Source: Anaerolineae bacterium
GTDB lineage: Bacteria > Chloroflexota > Anaerolineae > DRVO01
Length of the DNA: 64,000 nucleotides
NCBI GenBank assembly: GCA_013178015.1
Contig: JABLXR010000031.1
Location: 21,108 to 85,107, forward strand
Reading direction: 5' to 3'
The notes beneath the pieces are model-generated. The model saw only the letters and a list, made by a program, of their open reading frames with translations. It searched no databases and was not told the DNA's origin. The translations under genes were made by a program, and so were the position numbers. This document shows positions 5,591-36,949 of the stretch, one piece after another; position 1 is the stretch's first letter; each line of letters starts with the position of its first letter.

Positions 5591-6789
5591 CGACCGAACA
5601 CCCCCTGTCGGTCGAACTCGGCGATCTCCTCAGAGGAGTAGCCCAGCTCGGCCAACACCTCCTCGGTGTGTTGACCCAGATCCGGCGGAGGCATCCTTAG
5701 AGTGGCGGGCGTGCCGTAGAGCCGCACCGGCGTGCCGAACAGCTTGAGTGTGCCGGCGCGAGGGTGATCCATCTCTACCACCATCTCGTTGGCGGCCAAC
5801 TGCGGGTCCGCTGCCGCCTCTTCAAACGAGTTCACGTGCCCGCACAGGATGCCGAGAGGTTCCAGGTAGGCGATCCACTCATCGGTGGTCTTCTCCATGA
5901 ATCGCCCGGCGAGCACATCGTTGATTTCCTCCGCCCGCTCGAGCCGGTCGGCGTCGGTAGCGTACCGAGGGTCTTGAGAGAGATCGCCTATGCCCAAGGC
6001 CAGAGACAGATCCCGCAGAGCGTCGGAGGAGAACACCGGCGAGATCTCGATGAAGCTGTCGCGCGTGCGAAACGCCTTGCGAATGACCTTCTCCGTCACT
6101 TCGATGCCGACCTGCGCCGAAATGCGTTCCCGGTTCAGGATGCCCCCGCCCTCCCACGTATGGGCGTGGAAGGCGGCGCTGAAGAGGTCGGTAGTAACTA
6201 GCTGGCCTCGGCCGGTGCGTTCCCGGGCCAGAAGGGCCATGAGAATGCCCTGCACCAGCAGGAGACCGGCCGGGTAATCGGCCGACATGCCGACCGGAAC
6301 CGGCAGGCCATCTGCGCCCAGTGGTTCGAACCATCCTGCCTCGGCCCGGGCCAGCACGTCGTGGCCTCCTCGCCCACGCTCTACGTATGGTCCCCGATCC
6401 CCCCAGCCGCTGGACCGAGCGTACACCAGCCGCGGGTGCACCACCGCCAGATCCTCGTACCCTAGCCCCAGCCGTTCCATGGTGCCCGGTCGGAAGTTAT
6501 GCACCAGCACGTCCGCCGTGAGCACCAGCCTGTGGATGATCTGCTTGCCCCCCTCGGTACGCAGATCCAGAGCCACGCTGCGCTTGTTGCGGTTGAGGCT
6601 GGCGAACGGCATGCTAACCCCGTCCACGTACGGCCCCCAGCTTCGGCTCCAATCGCCCGATCCAGGGCGCTCAATCTTGATCACGTCGGCGCCGAAGTCC
6701 GCCATCAACTGCGTCCCTACCGGGCCCTGGTACACGTGACTGAAGTCCACCACCCGGATGCCCTCCAGGGCCGCCGTGCAACCGGCCAA
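5587..6789 (-). CDS. family III CoA-transferase (CaiB/BaiF family)
   Basis: The motif GIRVVDFSHVYQGPVGTQLMADFGADVIKIERPG is typical of CaiB/BaiF. The start was reassigned to the TTG at 6789, which follows GGGGAGGG and lies directly after the upstream gene stop at 6821. The ORF extending to 6924 overlaps the hydratase gene. Confidence 0.8.
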   Translation of the reverse strand: MAGCTAALEGIRVVDFSHVYQGPVGTQLMADFGADVIKIERPGSGDWSRSWGPYVDGVSMPFASLNRNKRSVALDLRTEGGKQIIHRLVLTADVLVHNFRPGTMERLGLGYEDLAVVHPRLVYARSSGWGDRGPYVERGRGGHDVLARAEAGWFEPLGADGLPVPVGMSADYPAGLLLVQGILMALLARERTGRGQLVTTDLFSAAFHAHTWEGGGILNRERISAQVGIEVTEKVIRKAFRTRDSFIEISPVFSSDALRDLSLALGIGDLSQDPRYATDADRLERAEEINDVLAGRFMEKTTDEWIAYLEPLGILCGHVNSFEEAAADPQLAANEMVVEMDHPRAGTLKLFGTPVRLYGTPATLRMPPPDLGQHTEEVLAELGYSSEEIAEFDRQGVFGR

Positions 6790-30726: not shown

Positions 30727-30949
30727 CCCCCCTCAGTATCGCCGTCGCGCCCGCATGCTGGGAGGCAGTCGCCCAGGCCGGCCAATTCGATACCGCTGAC
30801 CGCCCCAATCATAGCCACTCACTCTCGCCGAACTGCCCTCCGGTCTCTCTCGCGCTCTCCACTGGAACCACCAACTGACGCAGGCACCGGACCTTCGCGC
30901 GGAGGTCCGGTGCCCGCGTCAGTAAGGTCTGGCCTCTACGGGAGCGCGC

Positions 30950-31531
30950 CTAGCCGGTGAAGAACGGGAACTCGGTGTCGTCCCAGTAGGTGTTGTTGTC
31001 CTCCAGGTACTCCAGACTTCGCTGCAGCCACTGGTGATGACGGTTCTCCTCCTCCATCAGGAGGCGATAGGCAGCTCGAGCGTTGGGGTCGTCGGCCCGT
31101 TCGTAGGCATCCCGATAGAGGGCGAATCCGCGTTCTTCTGCCTTGAGGGCCAGTTCCAGCGCTTCGCGGTCGCCCGACCCGGCGTGAAGACCAGGGATCA
31201 CCCGGCTCGGATCCGGGAAGAGCCGCTCCTCGGGTATGGCAGCCCCAGGCACGTCGCCAGGGGAAACCTTGAACTGCTCAATCGGGGGAACAGAGGCGGC
31301 CTTGGCCTTCTCCACACTGATCCACCCACCGCCATCGAGCAGACTCTGATACTCGCCCGCTAGGACACGGTAGTGCTCCTCTTCGTCATGGGCCAAGCCC
31401 AGAAACATGCGCCGACCCATCTCGTCCCGCACGTGATGGGCAATCGCGAGGTAGTAGCGTCTACCTTCCTGCTCGTTGATGATCGCGTACGCCAGCGCTG
31501 CCAGCGCCGCCGCGTTCGATGCTGAGGACAT
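30950..31531 (-). CDS. ferritin-like/rubrerythrin-like domain protein (no obvious encapsulin targeting tag)
   Basis: Two E…EEH-type helix pairs (…DEMGRRMFLGLAHDEEEHY… and …EEENRHHQWL…) are separated by a Pro-rich linker. The gene is immediately downstream of the encapsulin gene. Confidence 0.55.
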   Translation of the reverse strand: MSSASNAAALAALAYAIINEQEGRRYYLAIAHHVRDEMGRRMFLGLAHDEEEHYRVLAGEYQSLLDGGGWISVEKAKAASVPPIEQFKVSPGDVPGAAIPEERLFPDPSRVIPGLHAGSGDREALELALKAEERGFALYRDAYERADDPNARAAYRLLMEEENRHHQWLQRSLEYLEDNNTYWDDTEFPFFTG

Positions 31532-31583
31532 CGGGCAAACTCCTCCGACTGACAGAATGTACTGACGCGGAAGGCACGATCGC

Positions 31584-32417
31584 TCACTCCAGAACGCAGA
31601 TTCCCTCGGGGCGCCGTATCCGCAGCGCCAGGGTCTCCAGCACCCGGAAGGGATGGTTCAGTTCCTCCGGGCCCTTGTAGGCGACCTGAATATCGCCGCC
31701 GATGGCCAGGTCCAAGACGTCAGGGCCGGATGAGACCAGAGCGCCTGTGCCGGCATCCAGAATGGGGCTCTGGAAGACCCCCGCCTCGGCCACCGACTTG
31801 ATAAGCTCCAGCTCCAGCCTACCTCCGTGCCCGAGAATGCGCAGGAGCTTGGTGTACAAGTCGGGCGCGAGCACCAGAGCGTACGGGCCCATGGCGGCGT
31901 TGGCCACCAATAGCGAGCGGGCCTGTGCCACCGCCGCCAGCCCACTTCCCGGCTCCTCCCAGCCAGCCTCGATCGCCACCGTCACGTGTCCGGGAACCCT
32001 CATGATTCCGGGGTTGTCGTCCGTGCCGTAGAACACCAGTCGGTCCTCCGCGCGGGCGAGCATCGCCCCCGCGGCTGCTCCGGCAGAGACGTCCAGGGGA
32101 GCGTGCAGGTCCCGCGCCGTGGCGATGTCCCGCCACGTGAGCCGAAAGTCCTTGTACAGCATCTCCAGCGCCAGCAGGCGCCTCTCCGTGGGCACGACCT
32201 CGTCGGTCTCCTCTTCGCCATAGGTGCCCATGGTGCCCGGGCTCACGCCCTTGACCTTGTCCACCCACACGGCCTGCACTCCCAGGCCCAGAGGCCCGTA
32301 CAGGCTGATGAACCGCCTCCCTACCAGGTTCGCCCGGGCGGCCTGCATCACGGCAGAATCAATCTGCTCCCACTCCTGGTCGCTCAAGGGAGCGTCCTGT
32401 CGCAACAACAACTCCAT
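31584..32417 (-). CDS. family 1 encapsulin nanocompartment shell protein (linocin M18-like, HK97 fold)
   Basis: The N-terminus MELLLRQDAPLSDQEWEQIDSAVMQAARANLVGRRFISLYGPLGLG aligns with the T. maritima encapsulin start ([20 protein letters not shown]…GRKF…GP.G). The protein is 277 aa with GGAGG upstream. Confidence 0.85.
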   Translation of the reverse strand: MELLLRQDAPLSDQEWEQIDSAVMQAARANLVGRRFISLYGPLGLGVQAVWVDKVKGVSPGTMGTYGEEETDEVVPTERRLLALEMLYKDFRLTWRDIATARDLHAPLDVSAGAAAGAMLARAEDRLVFYGTDDNPGIMRVPGHVTVAIEAGWEEPGSGLAAVAQARSLLVANAAMGPYALVLAPDLYTKLLRILGHGGRLELELIKSVAEAGVFQSPILDAGTGALVSSGPDVLDLAIGGDIQVAYKGPEELNHPFRVLETLALRIRRPEGICVLE

Positions 32418-32487
32418 TGTCTCACCTCCAACAGCGTTATGACTGGAAATCCTCGGCCCGTGGCAGACAGACTGGGCCGGCCTTCCC

Positions 32488-33573
32488 TTACCTAGACTTG
32501 AGGCTACCTACCGTGAATCCGGGCGCAGTGCGCCCAGAGGCGGGCCTCCCCTCCGCCGAGCTCAAGTCGGGCGCGGCGTCCGCCCTCTCCGCCGGTGTCC
32601 CGGTGCGGGCGTCGGCAACCGAGGCCGAATCCTTGCCGGATCCACGCTCCTTCGCCGGCTGAGTACGGCCCAGGCCCGGCCGCTGCGAGGCCGGATCATT
32701 CTCCCGCACTCGCCCCAGCATCAGGTCGAACATGTGAATGTGGAACTCCTCGTTCTCCCGGGCTCGGTCCAGGGTCTCCACCAGCTCGGCTTGATCCTCG
32801 TCGTTGCGCAAGCGGTCAGCGTATTCGGCGTAGGTAGCGGCCACGCTCTTCTCGGCCTCCAAATCCGCTCCCAGCATGTCCCCGGTGGCTTCCCCCTTGT
32901 GCACCAAGCCACGCGCAAACAGGGGGAAGTGACCCGACTCAGCAGCCAGTTCGCCAAACCAGCCCAGGTGCTGCATCTCATTGATAGAGATGGTCTCCAG
33001 CTCTCGGCTCGCTTCGTAGTCCGGGGTGACGAAGGAGTGGAACAGGTACTGGAGGATGACCGTGTATTCGTGCTGGGTAGCGTAGTCTAGCACTCTGGCT
33101 ACCTCAGCCGCCAAGCCCTCGCCCTGGTAGATCCCGGCGGGCTTCCCTTCGAGCTCGCCTCCCGGACCGAACTTCTCGCGGAAAGAAGTGAAGACCTCCA
33201 GGTGAGCACGCTCGTCCGTCAGGATGCGATCAATGAGGGCGACGATCTTAGGGTCGTCAATGGCCTTCTTGTGAGCCTCGTACTGAGCGATGGCGTCCTC
33301 TTCGGCCCGGATGTCCCTCGCCATCCATTCGAGTGGGGCCTTGCCGCCTAGCTCCATCTCGGTGCGGTCCAGAATGGGCTCCCCGCCCAGCTGGGTGATG
33401 GCCTGCGCCAGCCACTTGAAGTGGCGCATCTCATCCCGCGCTGTCTGTTCTATCTCGGCCGCCTCTTCCCCCTCCCCCAGCAGGTAGGCGTGCTGCAGGT
33501 AGAGAATGATGGCTCCGTGTTCATCACGCATGTCGTCGTACAGCATCTTGATGATCTCGTTCTTCGCTGCCAT
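32488..33573 (-). CDS. tandem ferritin-like (rubrerythrin/Bfr-like) encapsulin cargo protein with C-terminal targeting peptide
   Basis: The ATG at 33573 follows AGGAGGG. Two diiron-type ferritin-like repeats (…AYLLGEGEEAAEIEQTARDEMRHFKWL… and …YLFHSFVTPDYEASRELETISINEMQHLGWF…) are followed by a disordered tail ending …APGFTVGSLKSR, which matches the family-1 cargo-loading consensus (TVGSLK). Confidence 0.7.
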   Translation of the reverse strand: MAAKNEIIKMLYDDMRDEHGAIILYLQHAYLLGEGEEAAEIEQTARDEMRHFKWLAQAITQLGGEPILDRTEMELGGKAPLEWMARDIRAEEDAIAQYEAHKKAIDDPKIVALIDRILTDERAHLEVFTSFREKFGPGGELEGKPAGIYQGEGLAAEVARVLDYATQHEYTVILQYLFHSFVTPDYEASRELETISINEMQHLGWFGELAAESGHFPLFARGLVHKGEATGDMLGADLEAEKSVAATYAEYADRLRNDEDQAELVETLDRARENEEFHIHMFDLMLGRVRENDPASQRPGLGRTQPAKERGSGKDSASVADARTGTPAERADAAPDLSSAEGRPASGRTAPGFTVGSLKSR

Positions 33574-33584
33574 TCGCCACCCTC

Positions 33585-34457
33585 CTAACACTGATCGGAT
33601 CTGATCCGCAACCACGTATGCCAGAGCAGTACTGCGTCCTGATCGTTTGTCGGACTCTCGCAGATCACGCGCCCCGACACGCGCAGGCGCGCGAGAACGC
33701 CCAGGAGCCCCCTGTAGTTGAGGTCCGACTCCGGCAGAGGCACATGCCTGATTTCCCCTCGGGCGCCATACTCAATGCCGCTGACGTGTATGTGGACGTC
33801 CTGCAGGGCCTCGCTCCCCAGCGCCTGCCCCATGCGCTGCAGCACCTGCTCAAACTCGTCCTCCGTGTTCATCAGTCCTTGCCTGGCGTGCAAGTGCGCG
33901 AAGTCCAGGCAAGGTCTGACGCCGGGCACATCTTGCGCCAGCCGGAGCAGTTCGTCAAGGTCTCCGAACTGAGCCTGCTTGCCAGTCGTCTCCGGGCGCA
34001 GGCAAATGTGGACTCCCTCCTCTCGCAAGATGTGCGACATCTCAGCAACGTGCGACCGCACCACTTGGTACACGCGCTCAGGTGCGTCGTCGTGCCTCCA
34101 TCCGGCGTGGAACACGACCGTGTCGGCACCACAGAGATACCCGACCCGAGCGGCCTGCAACACCCGGTAGCGACTGGCCTTGACCTTGTCCGCCGACGGG
34201 GAGTTCAGGTTGATGTAGTAGGACGCATGGGCGCTGAGGGCCACGTCCAGCCGATGTGCCTGGGCCTGTACATCCGGTGCCTGATCCGGCCGCACGTTCA
34301 CCCGGTGCACGAAAGCCAGCTCCATGGCCTGCAGGCCAAGCCGCCGCACCTCAGCGATGCCATCCAGGTGGCTGGCTCCACTTAGGCTTCGAGGGACACC
34401 GGCGGTGCCGAAGCGCAGAGGCGCCCCGCATCCGGAGCGCTCCGCTGCCCCTGTCAT
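33585..34457 (-). CDS. nfo: endonuclease IV-like (AP endonuclease family 2, TIM barrel)
   Basis: HASYYINLNSPSADKVKASR resembles the Nfo HAPYLINLG region, with metal-binding H/D/E positions. The ATG at 34457 follows the upstream stop at 34471. The ORF extending to 34685 is an over-extension. Confidence 0.7.
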   Translation of the reverse strand: MTGAAERSGCGAPLRFGTAGVPRSLSGASHLDGIAEVRRLGLQAMELAFVHRVNVRPDQAPDVQAQAHRLDVALSAHASYYINLNSPSADKVKASRYRVLQAARVGYLCGADTVVFHAGWRHDDAPERVYQVVRSHVAEMSHILREEGVHICLRPETTGKQAQFGDLDELLRLAQDVPGVRPCLDFAHLHARQGLMNTEDEFEQVLQRMGQALGSEALQDVHIHVSGIEYGARGEIRHVPLPESDLNYRGLLGVLARLRVSGRVICESPTNDQDAVLLWHTWLRIRSDQC

Positions 34458-36046: not shown

Positions 36047-36949
36047 ATGTCTCTCAAGATGAGCGATCTCATGCCTCGAATCCAGATCGGCCCTCACAGC
36101 CTGTCCCGGCTGATAATCGGCGGCAATCCTTTTAGCGGCAACTCCCACCAGACCTCTGAAGCCGACCGGGAGATGCGGGAGTACCACTCTGCCGCCCGCA
36201 TCCTCGCAACCCTCCGCCGTGCCGAGGGATGGGGAATCAACACGTTCCAGTCTCGCGGCGACAACCACATGATGCGCCTGGTGAACGACCACTGGCGGGC
36301 CGGAGGCAGGCTCAACTGGATCGCGCAGACTGCCAGCGAACGGGCCGACGTATTCGCTAACATCAGCCAGATAGCGCGGGCCGGGGCCATCGGCATCTAC
36401 CACCACGGGGCCCGCACCGATCAGCTCTGGCACCAGGGCCGGATAGACGAGGTGGAGCCCTATCTGCGCGCCATACGGGACACCGGTTGCCTGGTCGGCC
36501 TGGGCACCCACATCCCGCAAGTGCTGGCCTACGCCGACGAGCGCAGCTGGGACCTGGATTTCTACATGGCCTCCCTCTACAACCTGAGCCGTCCCCTGGG
36601 CCAGAGGCCATCGCCCGCGGGCCAGCGTACCACCGATGAGCGCTTCCAGCACGATGACCGGGAAGCGATGCTGGCCGCCATCCGTAACACAGTCCGCCCG
36701 GTCCTGGCCTTCAAGATTCTAGGAGCGGGTCGACTAGCCACGAGTGACGCCGCGCTCCGCTCCGCCTTCGCTCGGACCCTGGCTGGCATCAAGCCCACCG
36801 ATGCCATCGTGGTCGGGGTGTTCACCAAGTACGGCGACCAGGTGGCACGGAACGCCAGGCTGGTGCTGGAGCTGGCCGGGACTACCTCCCTGGGGCGCAG
36901 GCCGCGGCCAGAGGCGGCCGGAGCCACAGGCCCGGTGCCCTCCGCCTAG
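36047..36949 (+). CDS. hypothetical protein (300 aa), first gene of the tetronate-kinase cluster
   Basis: A long ORF with coding-like composition. No family was recognised from the sequence. Confidence 0.5.
   Translation: MSLKMSDLMPRIQIGPHSLSRLIIGGNPFSGNSHQTSEADREMREYHSAARILATLRRAEGWGINTFQSRGDNHMMRLVNDHWRAGGRLNWIAQTASERADVFANISQIARAGAIGIYHHGARTDQLWHQGRIDEVEPYLRAIRDTGCLVGLGTHIPQVLAYADERSWDLDFYMASLYNLSRPLGQRPSPAGQRTTDERFQHDDREAMLAAIRNTVRPVLAFKILGAGRLATSDAALRSAFARTLAGIKPTDAIVVGVFTKYGDQVARNARLVLELAGTTSLGRRPRPEAAGATGPVPSA

Follow-up and report, generated by a model that had tools for sequence, protein, structure and literature searches.

A capsid-fold gene that stands between two genes for ferritin-like proteins raises the question of whether the three form an iron-handling encapsulin or whether a phage remnant happens to lie beside unrelated genes. 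We analyzed such a locus in a 64-kb stretch of DNA (hereafter, the window) from an Anaerolineae metagenome-assembled genome (MAG). As detailed below, the locus very probably is a chromosomal family 1 encapsulin of Anaerolineae (Chloroflexota) with a double ferritin-like protein (DFLP) as its core cargo, operating by the mechanism that we propose.

Gene organization of the locus

Three closely spaced minus-strand genes make up the operon, as judged from the ORF listing; they encode a 361-aa cargo, a 277-aa shell protein, and a 193-aa rubrerythrin-domain protein (Table 1). All three ORFs were recovered on the strand and at the positions at which an earlier sequence-only reading of this DNA had placed them. 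Counted from the gene upstream of the cargo, the intergenic distances are 11, 70, and 52 nt, and a ribosome-binding site (RBS) precedes each gene of the operon: AGGAGG lies 8 nt ahead of the cargo ATG, GGAGGTGA precedes the ATG of the shell gene, and GGAGGA that of the third gene. Cargo and shell genes thus share a strand, with the cargo gene immediately upstream, the order expected of a family 1 encapsulin, and 70 nt separate the cargo stop from the shell start. A separate gene call, made on a metagenome contig of identical sequence, likewise gave a cargo of 361 aa. We discarded a longer version starting from a GTG at 33615, which would overlap the upstream gene and lacks an RBS; moreover, the homologs begin at the ATG.

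Table 1. Features of the encapsulin locus, in window coordinates
Feature	Position	Strand	Basis
GC-rich hairpin, 21 bp, just 3′ of the third gene	30874..30923	−	RNA fold
Accessory rubrerythrin-domain diiron protein, 193 aa (third gene)	30950..31531	−	PF02915, E = 1e-14, in two stretches
Family 1 encapsulin shell protein, 277 aa, HK97 fold	31584..32417	−	NCBIfam, Pfam, and PDB matches
Cargo gene, 361-aa DFLP ("Bfr-type" encapsulin cargo)	32488..33573	−	ORF, Pfam, PDB sequence match
Targeting peptide core FTVGSL, cargo residues 353–358, followed by KSR and stop	32500..32517	−	Read from sequence
Disordered low-complexity linker, cargo residues 293–351 (~60 residues)	32521..32697	−	pLDDT
C-terminal four-helix ferritin domain, cargo residues 156–292	32698..33108	−	AF2, internal repeat
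N-terminal four-helix ferritin domain, cargo residues 4–135	33169..33564	−	AF2, ligand conservation
AP-endonuclease-2/xylose-isomerase-like TIM-barrel gene, 290 aa, upstream of cargo	33585..34457	−	PF01261, E = 2.5e-34

The hairpin after the last gene has a predicted folding energy of −53.2 kcal/mol (z = −5.4 against shuffled sequences, with 0 of 200 shuffles as stable) and likely closes the transcription unit at its 3′ end; having no T-tract, it escaped a scan for consensus terminators. No structured RNA was matched by Rfam across 29.5–36.5 kb. At the other end, the stop codon of the TIM-barrel gene lies 11 nt ahead of the cargo ATG, and therefore the two genes are probably cotranscribed. This gene also adjoins the DFLP gene in related loci L002 to L007, including L003, which has no shell gene; it is not part of the encapsulin system. 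The neighborhood of the operon comprises genes for an FGGY kinase, a cupin, a DUF554 protein, the AP_endonuc_2 protein, a RodZ-like protein, and a dehydrogenase.

The shell protein belongs to family 1 encapsulins

The shell protein matched both curated models of the family well above their cutoffs: NCBIfam encap_f1 (NF041155) scored 242.1 bits against a cutoff of 100 over residues 4–276, and Pfam Linocin_M18 (PF04454) scored 208.6 bits against a cutoff of 24.3 (E = 1.2e-61) over the full length. The latter alignment starts at residue 1, which bears out the earlier proposal of a family 1 shell aligned from its first residue. The best PDB match was Myxococcus xanthus EncA (E = 1e-71, 46% identity over 270 residues), and the T=4 shell of Quasibacillus thermotolerans was matched at E = 7e-66; the match to the Thermotoga maritima shell, which has the smaller T=1 form, was at about 1e-13.

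The cargo is a double ferritin-like protein

The 361-aa cargo matched the Pfam models Ferritin, Ferritin-like, and Rubrerythrin, the Ferritin model in two stretches, and a protein 100% identical to it carries the annotation [quoted passage not shown]. In a sequence search of the PDB, its top match was 9viw_A, the DFLP of Thermocrinis minervae (TmDFLP), with an E value of 2.3e-32; the alignment joins query residues 4–285 to chain residues 13–290 and so spans both domains. TmDFLP and the DFLP of Caldanaerovirga acetigignens (CaDFLP), the latter an encapsulin core cargo, come from the study in which the DFLP family was defined, PDB entry 9VIW was solved, and ferroxidase activity was shown (Anuchina et al. 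2025, bioRxiv 10.1101/2025.09.13.676036). When the AF2 model of the cargo was searched against the PDB with Foldseek, (mini-)bacterioferritins were the top matches for each domain (TM 0.75–0.87, normalized to target). Only single-domain bacterioferritins (Bfr) and mini-Bfr were matched in this search and 9VIW was not returned; the cargo is therefore tied to 9VIW by the sequence search.

Aligned with one another, the cargo halves share 24% identity (E = 2e-12), and AF2 predicts two bundles with eight helices in total, as expected of two four-helix domains that arose by duplication. The N-terminal bundle comprises helices 4–32, 36–61, 80–104, and 108–135, mostly with pLDDT >85, and the C-terminal bundle comprises helices 156–182, 186–212, 230–255, and 259–292. 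The two diiron repeats that had been read from the sequence are therefore a real duplication, but each is a complete four-helix bundle and not a helix pair. The earlier description of a fused, Bfr-like cargo with two domains, encoded just upstream of the shell gene, is thus borne out by the 9viw match, the internal repeat, and the AF2 model.

Both bundles contain a complete E-ExxH-E-ExxH diiron site. In the N-terminal domain, the ligands E18, E48, H51, E91, E121, and H124 line up with the TmDFLP site; their columns are invariant in alignment A1 and, among 120 homologs, either invariant or conserved in 119, the lone exception being an alignment gap. The C-terminal ligands E169, E199, H202, E241, E275, and H278 are likewise invariant in A1 and conserved in 119–120 of 120 homologs, with E169 read from A1 alone. 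The cargo thus has the EEHEEH set that defines DFLPs in its N-terminal domain and a complete one in its C-terminal domain as well; 57% of DFLP members have EEHEEH in the C-terminal domain. Furthermore, each domain has one putative heme-ligand methionine (M49 and M200), in columns that are invariant in 119–120 of the 120 homologs.

A disordered tail ends in a canonical targeting peptide

Downstream of the second bundle, pLDDT falls below 50 over residues 296–361, and the cargo ends in ...TAPGFTVGSLKSR, just as the sequence-only reading had given it. The targeting-peptide motif was defined as [LF]-x-[VI]-G-x-[LI], following Anuchina et al. 2025, and FTVGSL at residues 353–358 of 361 conforms to it; the earlier proposal of a C-terminal targeting peptide after a disordered tail was therefore correct. 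The tag matches FTVGSL/LTVGSL peptides seen bound in the shell structures of Q. thermotolerans and M. xanthus (cited in Anuchina et al. 2025). Among 120 homologs, 69 end in [FLW]T[VL]G[SG]L, and this flanking motif is conserved next to linkers that are otherwise unconserved and unalignable. The span from the last ligand His to the tag is 74 residues here, the longest among the 69 tagged homologs (median, 43). The cargo has the sole ORF C terminus with a targeting-peptide-like motif in the window; a scan of the ORF C termini found no second tagged cargo.

The third gene encodes an untagged rubrerythrin-domain protein

AF2 modeled the 193-aa protein as a four-helix bundle (mean pLDDT, 84) with the ligands E20, E50, H53, E132, E162, and H165 and with an insert of ~55 residues, mostly nonhelical, between the helix pairs. 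Fold matches were weak, all with E values of at least 1.5e-3, and were limited to DPS-like proteins, TM1526/COG1633, and Bfr. The protein has a diiron bundle, zero cysteines, and no rubredoxin domain match; it is not a classical rubrerythrin and belongs to the rubrerythrin-domain-only (COG1633/erythrin-like) type. No [FL]T[VI]GSL-like motif was found at either terminus. Its C terminus reads as a conserved TYWDDxExPFF, which loosens to W..D.E.P.F[ED]G in the wider family. An exhaustive profile search gave 335 clusters of this family at E ≤ 1e-10; a word-indexed search gave 4 proteins only.

Joint gain and loss of tag and shell gene in Chloroflexota

We compared DFLP loci across Chloroflexota, scoring tags from the ORFs, with loci L027 and L040 counted as tagged. 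At the 70 scorable loci, tag and adjacent shell gene were either both present (13 of 13) or both absent (57 of 57), giving a Fisher P of 2e-14 that is uncorrected for phylogeny; on a neighbor-joining tree, the coupling is supported by only about four independent state changes. In L003, a close relative, the shell gene has been lost, the third gene persists as a remnant, and the tag has degenerated into STVGGR. Hence, the tag and the shell gene have been gained and lost together.

In L002, L004, and L006, the shell gene is followed immediately by an ortholog of the third gene; in L013, L016, L018, and L021, that slot is taken by another small gene of rubrerythrin-like type, and L012 has shell and cargo but lacks the third gene. 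Over a larger set of loci, 48 of 81 in Chloroflexota had a rubrerythrin-domain gene within 5 kb of the DFLP gene and on the same strand, whether a shell gene was present or not.

Proposed mechanism

Judging from homologs and the literature, the shell protein would self-assemble into an icosahedral compartment of the HK97 fold, with the larger T=3 or T=4 form suggested by its nearest relatives. As the shell forms, the DFLP would dock in a luminal groove of the shell protein by its C-terminal FTVGSL, and the flexible linker of ~60 residues would hold the DFLP inside. The co-occurrence of tag and shell gene (13 of 13 and 57 of 57 loci) lends such assembly and selective loading indirect support. 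The DFLP itself is probably a heme-bridged dimer and not a 24-mer cage. With the diiron centers complete in both domains, it would oxidize Fe(II) that arrives via the shell pores, and the ferric mineral may be held in the encapsulin lumen; we propose the lumen as the store since the DFLP lacks an internal cavity for storage. The untagged rubrerythrin-domain protein, as its gene neighborhood alone suggests, is most likely a cytosolic, coexpressed diiron partner for the handling of peroxide or the redox state of iron.

Alternative explanations

Several other readings of the locus were weighed. There is virtually no probability that the "shell" is the major capsid protein of a prophage or a degraded phage, with the ferritin genes as unrelated neighbors. 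The protein does match Phage_capsid_4, weakly and below threshold (24.7 bits against a cutoff of 27), which is expected from the shared HK97 fold; however, it has no PHROG match, passes the encap_f1 equivalog model, and follows the cargo tag in its presence, and its neighbors are housekeeping genes, among which, over 6 kb to each side, there is no gene for a terminase, a portal, a protease, or a tail. The sequence-only reading had made its proposal conditional on just such a lack of phage context, and a phage-capsid origin of the shell is effectively refuted, given that both a PHROG match and phage neighbors are lacking. It is very unlikely, too, that the DFLP forms a 12-mer or 24-mer-equivalent ferritin cage that is packaged in the encapsulin as a shell within a shell, which is how "Bfr" cargos were first interpreted. 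Andreas and Giessen (2021, PMC8346489) raised this possibility, each cargo domain resembles cage-forming (mini-)bacterioferritins, and another double-ferritin family, from Asgard archaea, forms a dodecameric shell. Nonetheless, TmDFLP and CaDFLP were dimers or monomers by size exclusion chromatography with multiangle light scattering (SEC-MALS), SAXS, and crystallography, AlphaFold3 built no cages, and the cargo is a full-length homolog of TmDFLP and not a member of the Asgard family.

The third gene invites two further readings. One is that its product is a second cargo, loaded through a noncanonical signal such as the C-terminal YWDDxExPFF. The place of its gene immediately behind the shell gene, both here and in the related loci named above, where the same or another rubrerythrin-like gene fills the slot, and its strongly conserved C terminus speak for this. 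However, the canonical targeting motif is at neither end, and W..D.E.P.F[ED]G also occurs in relatives beside untagged DFLPs at shell-less loci, which marks it as a feature of the family and not a shell tag; in addition, L012 does with shell and cargo alone. We consider a second cargo unlikely. The other is that the compartment serves mainly in oxidative stress and peroxide detoxification: the DFLP would use H2O2 with Fe(II) as cosubstrate, in a Dps-like manner, and would be coexpressed with a rubrerythrin-type peroxide handler and a DNA-repair endonuclease. Many Anaerolineae and Dehalococcoidia are anaerobic, and rubrerythrins there serve in peroxide defense. Consistent with this, rubrerythrin-domain genes recur near DFLP genes regardless of a shell, and an AP-endonuclease-2 family gene lies immediately upstream, an adjacency that is kept in close relatives. 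On the other hand, the DFLP ligands are the bacterioferritin ferroxidase set, and TmDFLP oxidized Fe(II) in air; the endonuclease adjacency is seen in a single close clade only, where it may reflect inheritance of gene order, and PF01261 is a broad TIM-barrel family in which an endonuclease IV assignment is not established. A predominantly peroxide-related role thus appears possible but somewhat doubtful, and it does not preclude an iron store, as the two roles are not mutually exclusive.

Relation to known encapsulin systems

The locus is a further example of a DFLP-encapsulin, from an Anaerolineae MAG. It shares with the described DFLP-encapsulin systems the two-domain architecture, both methionines, the N-terminal EEHEEH site, and the gene order of cargo and then shell; its FTVGSL tag is identical to that of CaDFLP, and its shell, like that of C. 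acetigignens, is closest to M. xanthus EncA. It differs from them in its Chloroflexota/Anaerolineae host, in its unusually long linker, and in the rubrerythrin-domain gene directly after the shell. TmDFLP was characterized as a dimer with substoichiometric heme and ferroxidase activity that forms no cages; heme occupancy of recombinant DFLPs was 3–8% only, and the crystal was heme free. Activity of the C-terminal site of TmDFLP could not be shown, and Ser replaces one Glu there (ESHEEH), unlike the EEHEEH of the present cargo. DFLP loading into encapsulin rests on motifs and AlphaFold models in that work (Anuchina et al. 2025).

The closest solved shells are those of M. xanthus EncA, with the cargos EncB/C/D, and of the Q. 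thermotolerans IMEF encapsulin. Those systems likewise have an LTVGSL/FTVGSL core in their targeting peptides and a cavity-less ferroxidase cargo, with the lumen as the iron store, as we would also expect here. By contrast, they carry as cargo either half-ferritin EncFtn, in decamers, or dimeric IMEF, whereas the present cargo is a fused, heme-type double four-helix bundle. Unlike those iron-mineralizing family 1 systems, the window showed no Bfd-like ferredoxin with an N-terminal tag in a scan that covered its ORF C termini. The cargo resembles Bfr and mini-bacterioferritin in the ferroxidase ligand set of each domain and in a Met placed like the Bfr heme ligand; it differs from Bfr in that two subunits of the Bfr dimer are fused in one chain and, judged from homologs, in that it would form no cage. 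The "Bfr" cargo class was assumed to consist of cage-forming bacterioferritins arranged as a shell within a shell (Andreas and Giessen 2021), and later data favor dimers.

The sequence-only reading had called a double-ferritin cargo unusual. It is indeed a minority type, but it is not novel, having been catalogued in 2021 (Andreas and Giessen 2021) and characterized in 2025 (Anuchina et al. 2025); therefore, the locus adds a clean example to a known kind of system, and the general understanding of encapsulins is unchanged by these results. As a complete Chloroflexota encapsulin of the DFLP type, with both diiron sites intact, a canonical tag, and a compact operon, it is a reasonable candidate for demonstrating DFLP loading and iron mineralization in the shell.

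DFLP and rubrerythrin-domain genes across Chloroflexota

Among GTDB species-representative genomes, 421 contain DFLP relatives, and the matching protein clusters number >1,000. The family was first reported with 157 InterPro members (Anuchina et al. 2025), and in Chloroflexota it is much larger than that. We tentatively raise the possibility that the functional unit in this group is the DFLP together with an untagged rubrerythrin-domain protein, the shell being an optional module that is gained or lost with the tag. Were this so, a dedicated redox role outside the shell would fall to the rubrerythrin-like protein; it might clear peroxide from iron oxidation or aid heme-mediated iron release, and would represent a partner class so far undescribed for encapsulin iron stores. 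As an observation in itself, the recurrence of a rubrerythrin-domain gene beside DFLP genes is a modest addition from the comparison.

Gene organization of the encapsulin locus

The encapsulin operon proposed in a sequence-only reading of the window was recovered as three minus-strand ORFs at the same coordinates, encoding a double ferritin-like protein (DFLP) as cargo, a shell protein, and a third protein.

Features of the encapsulin locus and its surroundings (window coordinates)
Feature	Position	Strand	Remarks
Third ORF	30950-31531	minus	193 aa
Shell ORF	31584-32417	minus	277 aa
Cargo ORF	32488-33573	minus	361 aa counted from ATG
Cargo linker	32521-32697	minus	74 residues, last ligand His to tag
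Hairpin, 21 bp, GC-rich	30874-30923		directly after third gene; RNA folding
AP_endonuc_2/xylose-isomerase-like TIM-barrel gene	33585-34457	minus	stop 11 nt before cargo ATG
300-aa ORF	36047-36949	plus	no Pfam match at E<=1e-3

A Shine-Dalgarno-like GGAGG precedes each of the three ORFs, with gaps of 70 nt between cargo and shell and 52 nt between shell and third gene. A GTG at 33615 that would lengthen the cargo ORF was rejected as its start: the extended frame overlaps the preceding gene, homologs begin at the ATG, and independent gene calling on an identical metagenome contig (Logan SRR6186653) passed the GTG over. The hairpin has a folding energy of -53 kcal/mol (z = -5.4), a value that 0 of 200 shuffles reached. 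A RodZ-like gene, itself behind a weak sigma-70-like site, precedes the TIM-barrel gene; given that site, this gene order, and the 11-nt spacing, all five genes may share a transcript, while comparative evidence links only the last three functionally. Adjacency of the TIM-barrel and DFLP genes is kept in six close relatives (L002 to L007 among our numbered Chloroflexota loci), including the shell-less one; the TIM-barrel gene may be co-transcribed or the gene order may simply be inherited. GC content is flat at ~65% over the whole window, and Rfam gave no family match in 29.5-36.5 kb. The gene call for the plus-strand 300-aa ORF was repeated on the identical metagenome contig.

The cargo contains two complete ferritin-like domains

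Three results bear out the proposed fusion of two ferritins. The cargo has an internal repeat (residues 6-128 versus 157-282, 24% identity, E 2e-12); its AlphaFold2 model, built from a 23-sequence alignment, shows two bundles of four helices each (residues 4-135 and 156-292, pLDDT mostly >85) followed by a disordered tail (residues 296-361, pLDDT <50); and its best solved relative by sequence, the 306-aa 'bacterioferritin' 9viw_A (E 2.3e-32), aligns with residues 4-285, covering both domains. 9VIW is the Thermocrinis minervae protein, TmDFLP, from the preprint defining DFLPs (bioRxiv 10.1101/2025.09.13.676036). Taken singly, the domains matched mini-bacterioferritin and bacterioferritins in fold. 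Each carries the full bacterioferritin ligand set (E18, E48, H51, E91, E121, and H124; E169, E199, H202, E241, E275, and H278) and one candidate heme ligand (M49 and M200), at positions where methionine is a 100% conserved heme-ligand candidate in DFLPs (bioRxiv 10.1101/2025.09.13.676036). These columns are invariant in the 23-sequence alignment and kept in 119 or 120 of the 120 best homologs. Both diiron sites are intact in the cargo, whereas in the C-terminal domain of TmDFLP a Ser replaces one Glu.

The targeting tag is coupled to the shell gene

The cargo ends in ...APGFTVGSLKSR. An identical FTVGSL core has been seen bound to the shell of Q. thermotolerans and is predicted for the Caldanaerovirga acetigignens protein, CaDFLP (bioRxiv 10.1101/2025.09.13.676036). 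[FL]TVGSL-like C-terminal motifs occurred in 69 of the 120 best homologs, behind unalignable linkers of 19 to 74 residues; in all others of the 120, the chain ends ~10 residues past the last helix. Measured from last ligand His to tag, distances in the 69 tagged proteins go down to 19 and have a median of 43, and the linker of our cargo is the longest. When the C termini of all window ORFs were scanned, no other tag-like sequence was found.

A genome-contig scan located cargo relatives in 421 GTDB species-representative genomes, and the best 80 matching loci were kept, nearly all labelled Chloroflexota and overwhelmingly Anaerolineae and Dehalococcoidia. Among these and the window's own contig, 70 loci were scorable. 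All 13 tagged DFLP genes were directly followed by a family 1 shell gene, whereas none of the 57 untagged genes had one within the available flank (uncorrected Fisher p 2e-14, kinship ignored). When the ferritin core was placed on a neighbour-joining tree, tag state changed about four times, and shell adjacency switched along each time. L003 shows this most clearly: in this close relative (60% identity) from Anaerolineae bin232 (JAXGMM010000001.1, a 2.09-Mb contig), the shell gene is naturally deleted and the tag has decayed. Compared with window 30950-33573, L003 4121-6997 retains the upstream TIM-barrel gene, the DFLP gene, and DUF554; the whole shell gene is gone, the third gene is reduced to its last ~18-43 codons (6109-6161, aligning with window 31006-30954 at 77% nucleotide identity), and the DFLP tail reads STVGGRKGDK, FTVGSLK having become STVGGRK. 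Thus, conservation of the motif across unalignable linkers and its co-occurrence with the shell gene both argue that the TVGSLK tag recognized in the sequence-only reading is functional.

Several untagged Dehalococcoidia DFLPs (among L030, L032, L033, L035, L038, L046, L051, and L054) end instead in ..[VI]N[IL]PDSGG (as in LGEIVNIPDSGG), a conserved tail that could be an unrelated interaction motif.

A rubrerythrin-like gene recurs beside DFLP genes

Rubrerythrin half-motifs (PF02915, E 1e-14) occur twice in the third-gene protein, whose ligands are E20, E50, H53, E132, E162, and H165. AlphaFold2 modeled it at a mean pLDDT of 84 as a four-helix bundle into which ~55 mostly non-helical residues are inserted. 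It contains zero cysteines and hence no rubredoxin domain; thus, rather than a classical rubrerythrin, it is a diiron protein of the rubrerythrin-domain-only kind. Foldseek found no close structural relative (best E 1.5e-3, DPS-like, COG1633-type). An exhaustive profile search gave 335 clusters at E<=1e-10, many sharing a C-terminal W..D.E.P.F[ED]G motif.

Orthologs (49-62% identity) follow the shell gene at the same position in L002, L004, and L006; in L012 the third gene is absent. By family HMM, 48 of 81 loci had a rubrerythrin-domain gene on the strand of the DFLP gene and no more than 5 kb from it, in two rubrerythrin-domain-only subtypes of ~155-161 and ~175-193 aa. In L013, L016, L018, and L021, the gene immediately behind the shell gene is of the ~155-aa subtype. 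In many shell-less Dehalococcoidia loci, that subtype comes after the untagged DFLP gene, or the ~180-aa subtype is found 1-4 kb upstream. Rubrerythrin-domain-only genes follow untagged DFLP genes in L020, L025, L028, L034, L035, and others, and stand 1-4 kb upstream in L023, L029, L030, and others. Behind the shell gene of L002 and L006, two such genes lie in tandem. Since these neighbours occur with or without a shell gene, the pairing is more general than the encapsulin, and the shell gene, if present, lies between the two.

Relation to described DFLPs

The DFLP family was defined by Anuchina et al. (2025), who assigned it 157 InterPro members (56 of them tagged), solved 9VIW, and demonstrated heme binding and ferroxidase activity (bioRxiv 10.1101/2025.09.13.676036). 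A distinct, cage-forming double ferritin of Asgard archaea was described in a related 2026 preprint. NCBI already lists a protein identical to the cargo, under the name 'ferritin-like domain-containing protein [Anaerolineae bacterium]'. Given that family and this entry, DFLP-type encapsulin cargo is already described and our locus is a further example; the sequence-only reading, confirmed overall in its observation and supported in its interpretation, overstated the novelty of a fused double-ferritin cargo. Our protein search gave >1,088 90%-identity clusters at E<=1e-5 among 8,000 candidates scored, and, together with the genome scan, this shows a family much larger than the 157 members. What this analysis adds is modest: the family's size among Chloroflexota, a strict coupling of tag and shell gene that a natural deletion exemplifies, a rubrerythrin-like neighbour that recurs, and the unusually long linker of our cargo.

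Shell protein and proposed function of the compartment

The shell protein scored 242 bits (cutoff 100) against NCBIfam NF041155, 'family 1 encapsulin nanocompartment shell protein', and matched Pfam Linocin_M18 over its full length (E 1e-61), in agreement with its earlier assignment to family 1. A phage remnant was considered; we regard this as highly improbable, as the score against the phage-capsid model PF25209 was under threshold, PHROG gave no match for the shell, and the genes up to 6 kb away are of ordinary chromosomal kinds (PHP-domain protein, FGGY kinase, cupin, DUF554, TIM-barrel endonuclease family, RodZ-like, and dehydrogenase). The shell thus shows neither the phage grouping nor, within these 6 kb, the phage flanks that the sequence-only reading named as refuting it. 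M. xanthus EncA is the closest solved structure (E 1e-71, 46% identity, 270 residues), and the T=4 shell of Q. thermotolerans comes next (E 7e-66). Far weaker matches (E 1e-13 to 1e-10) were obtained for the shells of T. maritima and mycobacteria, which are of the smaller T=1 form. These matches suggest that our shell is T=3 or T=4.

In the best-supported model, the compartment would be an encapsulin for iron oxidation and storage. Characterised DFLPs occur as dimers; they oxidise Fe(II) but neither build a cage nor store iron, and the authors of the preprint propose the encapsulin lumen as the storage cavity, with loading predicted from motifs and AlphaFold models (bioRxiv 10.1101/2025.09.13.676036). 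Our cargo fits this model, its loading being predicted, and the lumen would hold the iron that it oxidises. A compartment mainly for peroxide defence, which is compatible with iron storage, is a less likely but sensible alternative. A ferritin cage within the shell appears very unlikely for a protein whose characterised relatives are dimers. It is also rather improbable that the rubrerythrin-like protein encoded beside the shell is a non-canonical cargo, as none of the 335 third-gene clusters carries an encapsulin tag; judged by gene neighbourhood, it is read as an untagged, probably cytosolic partner.
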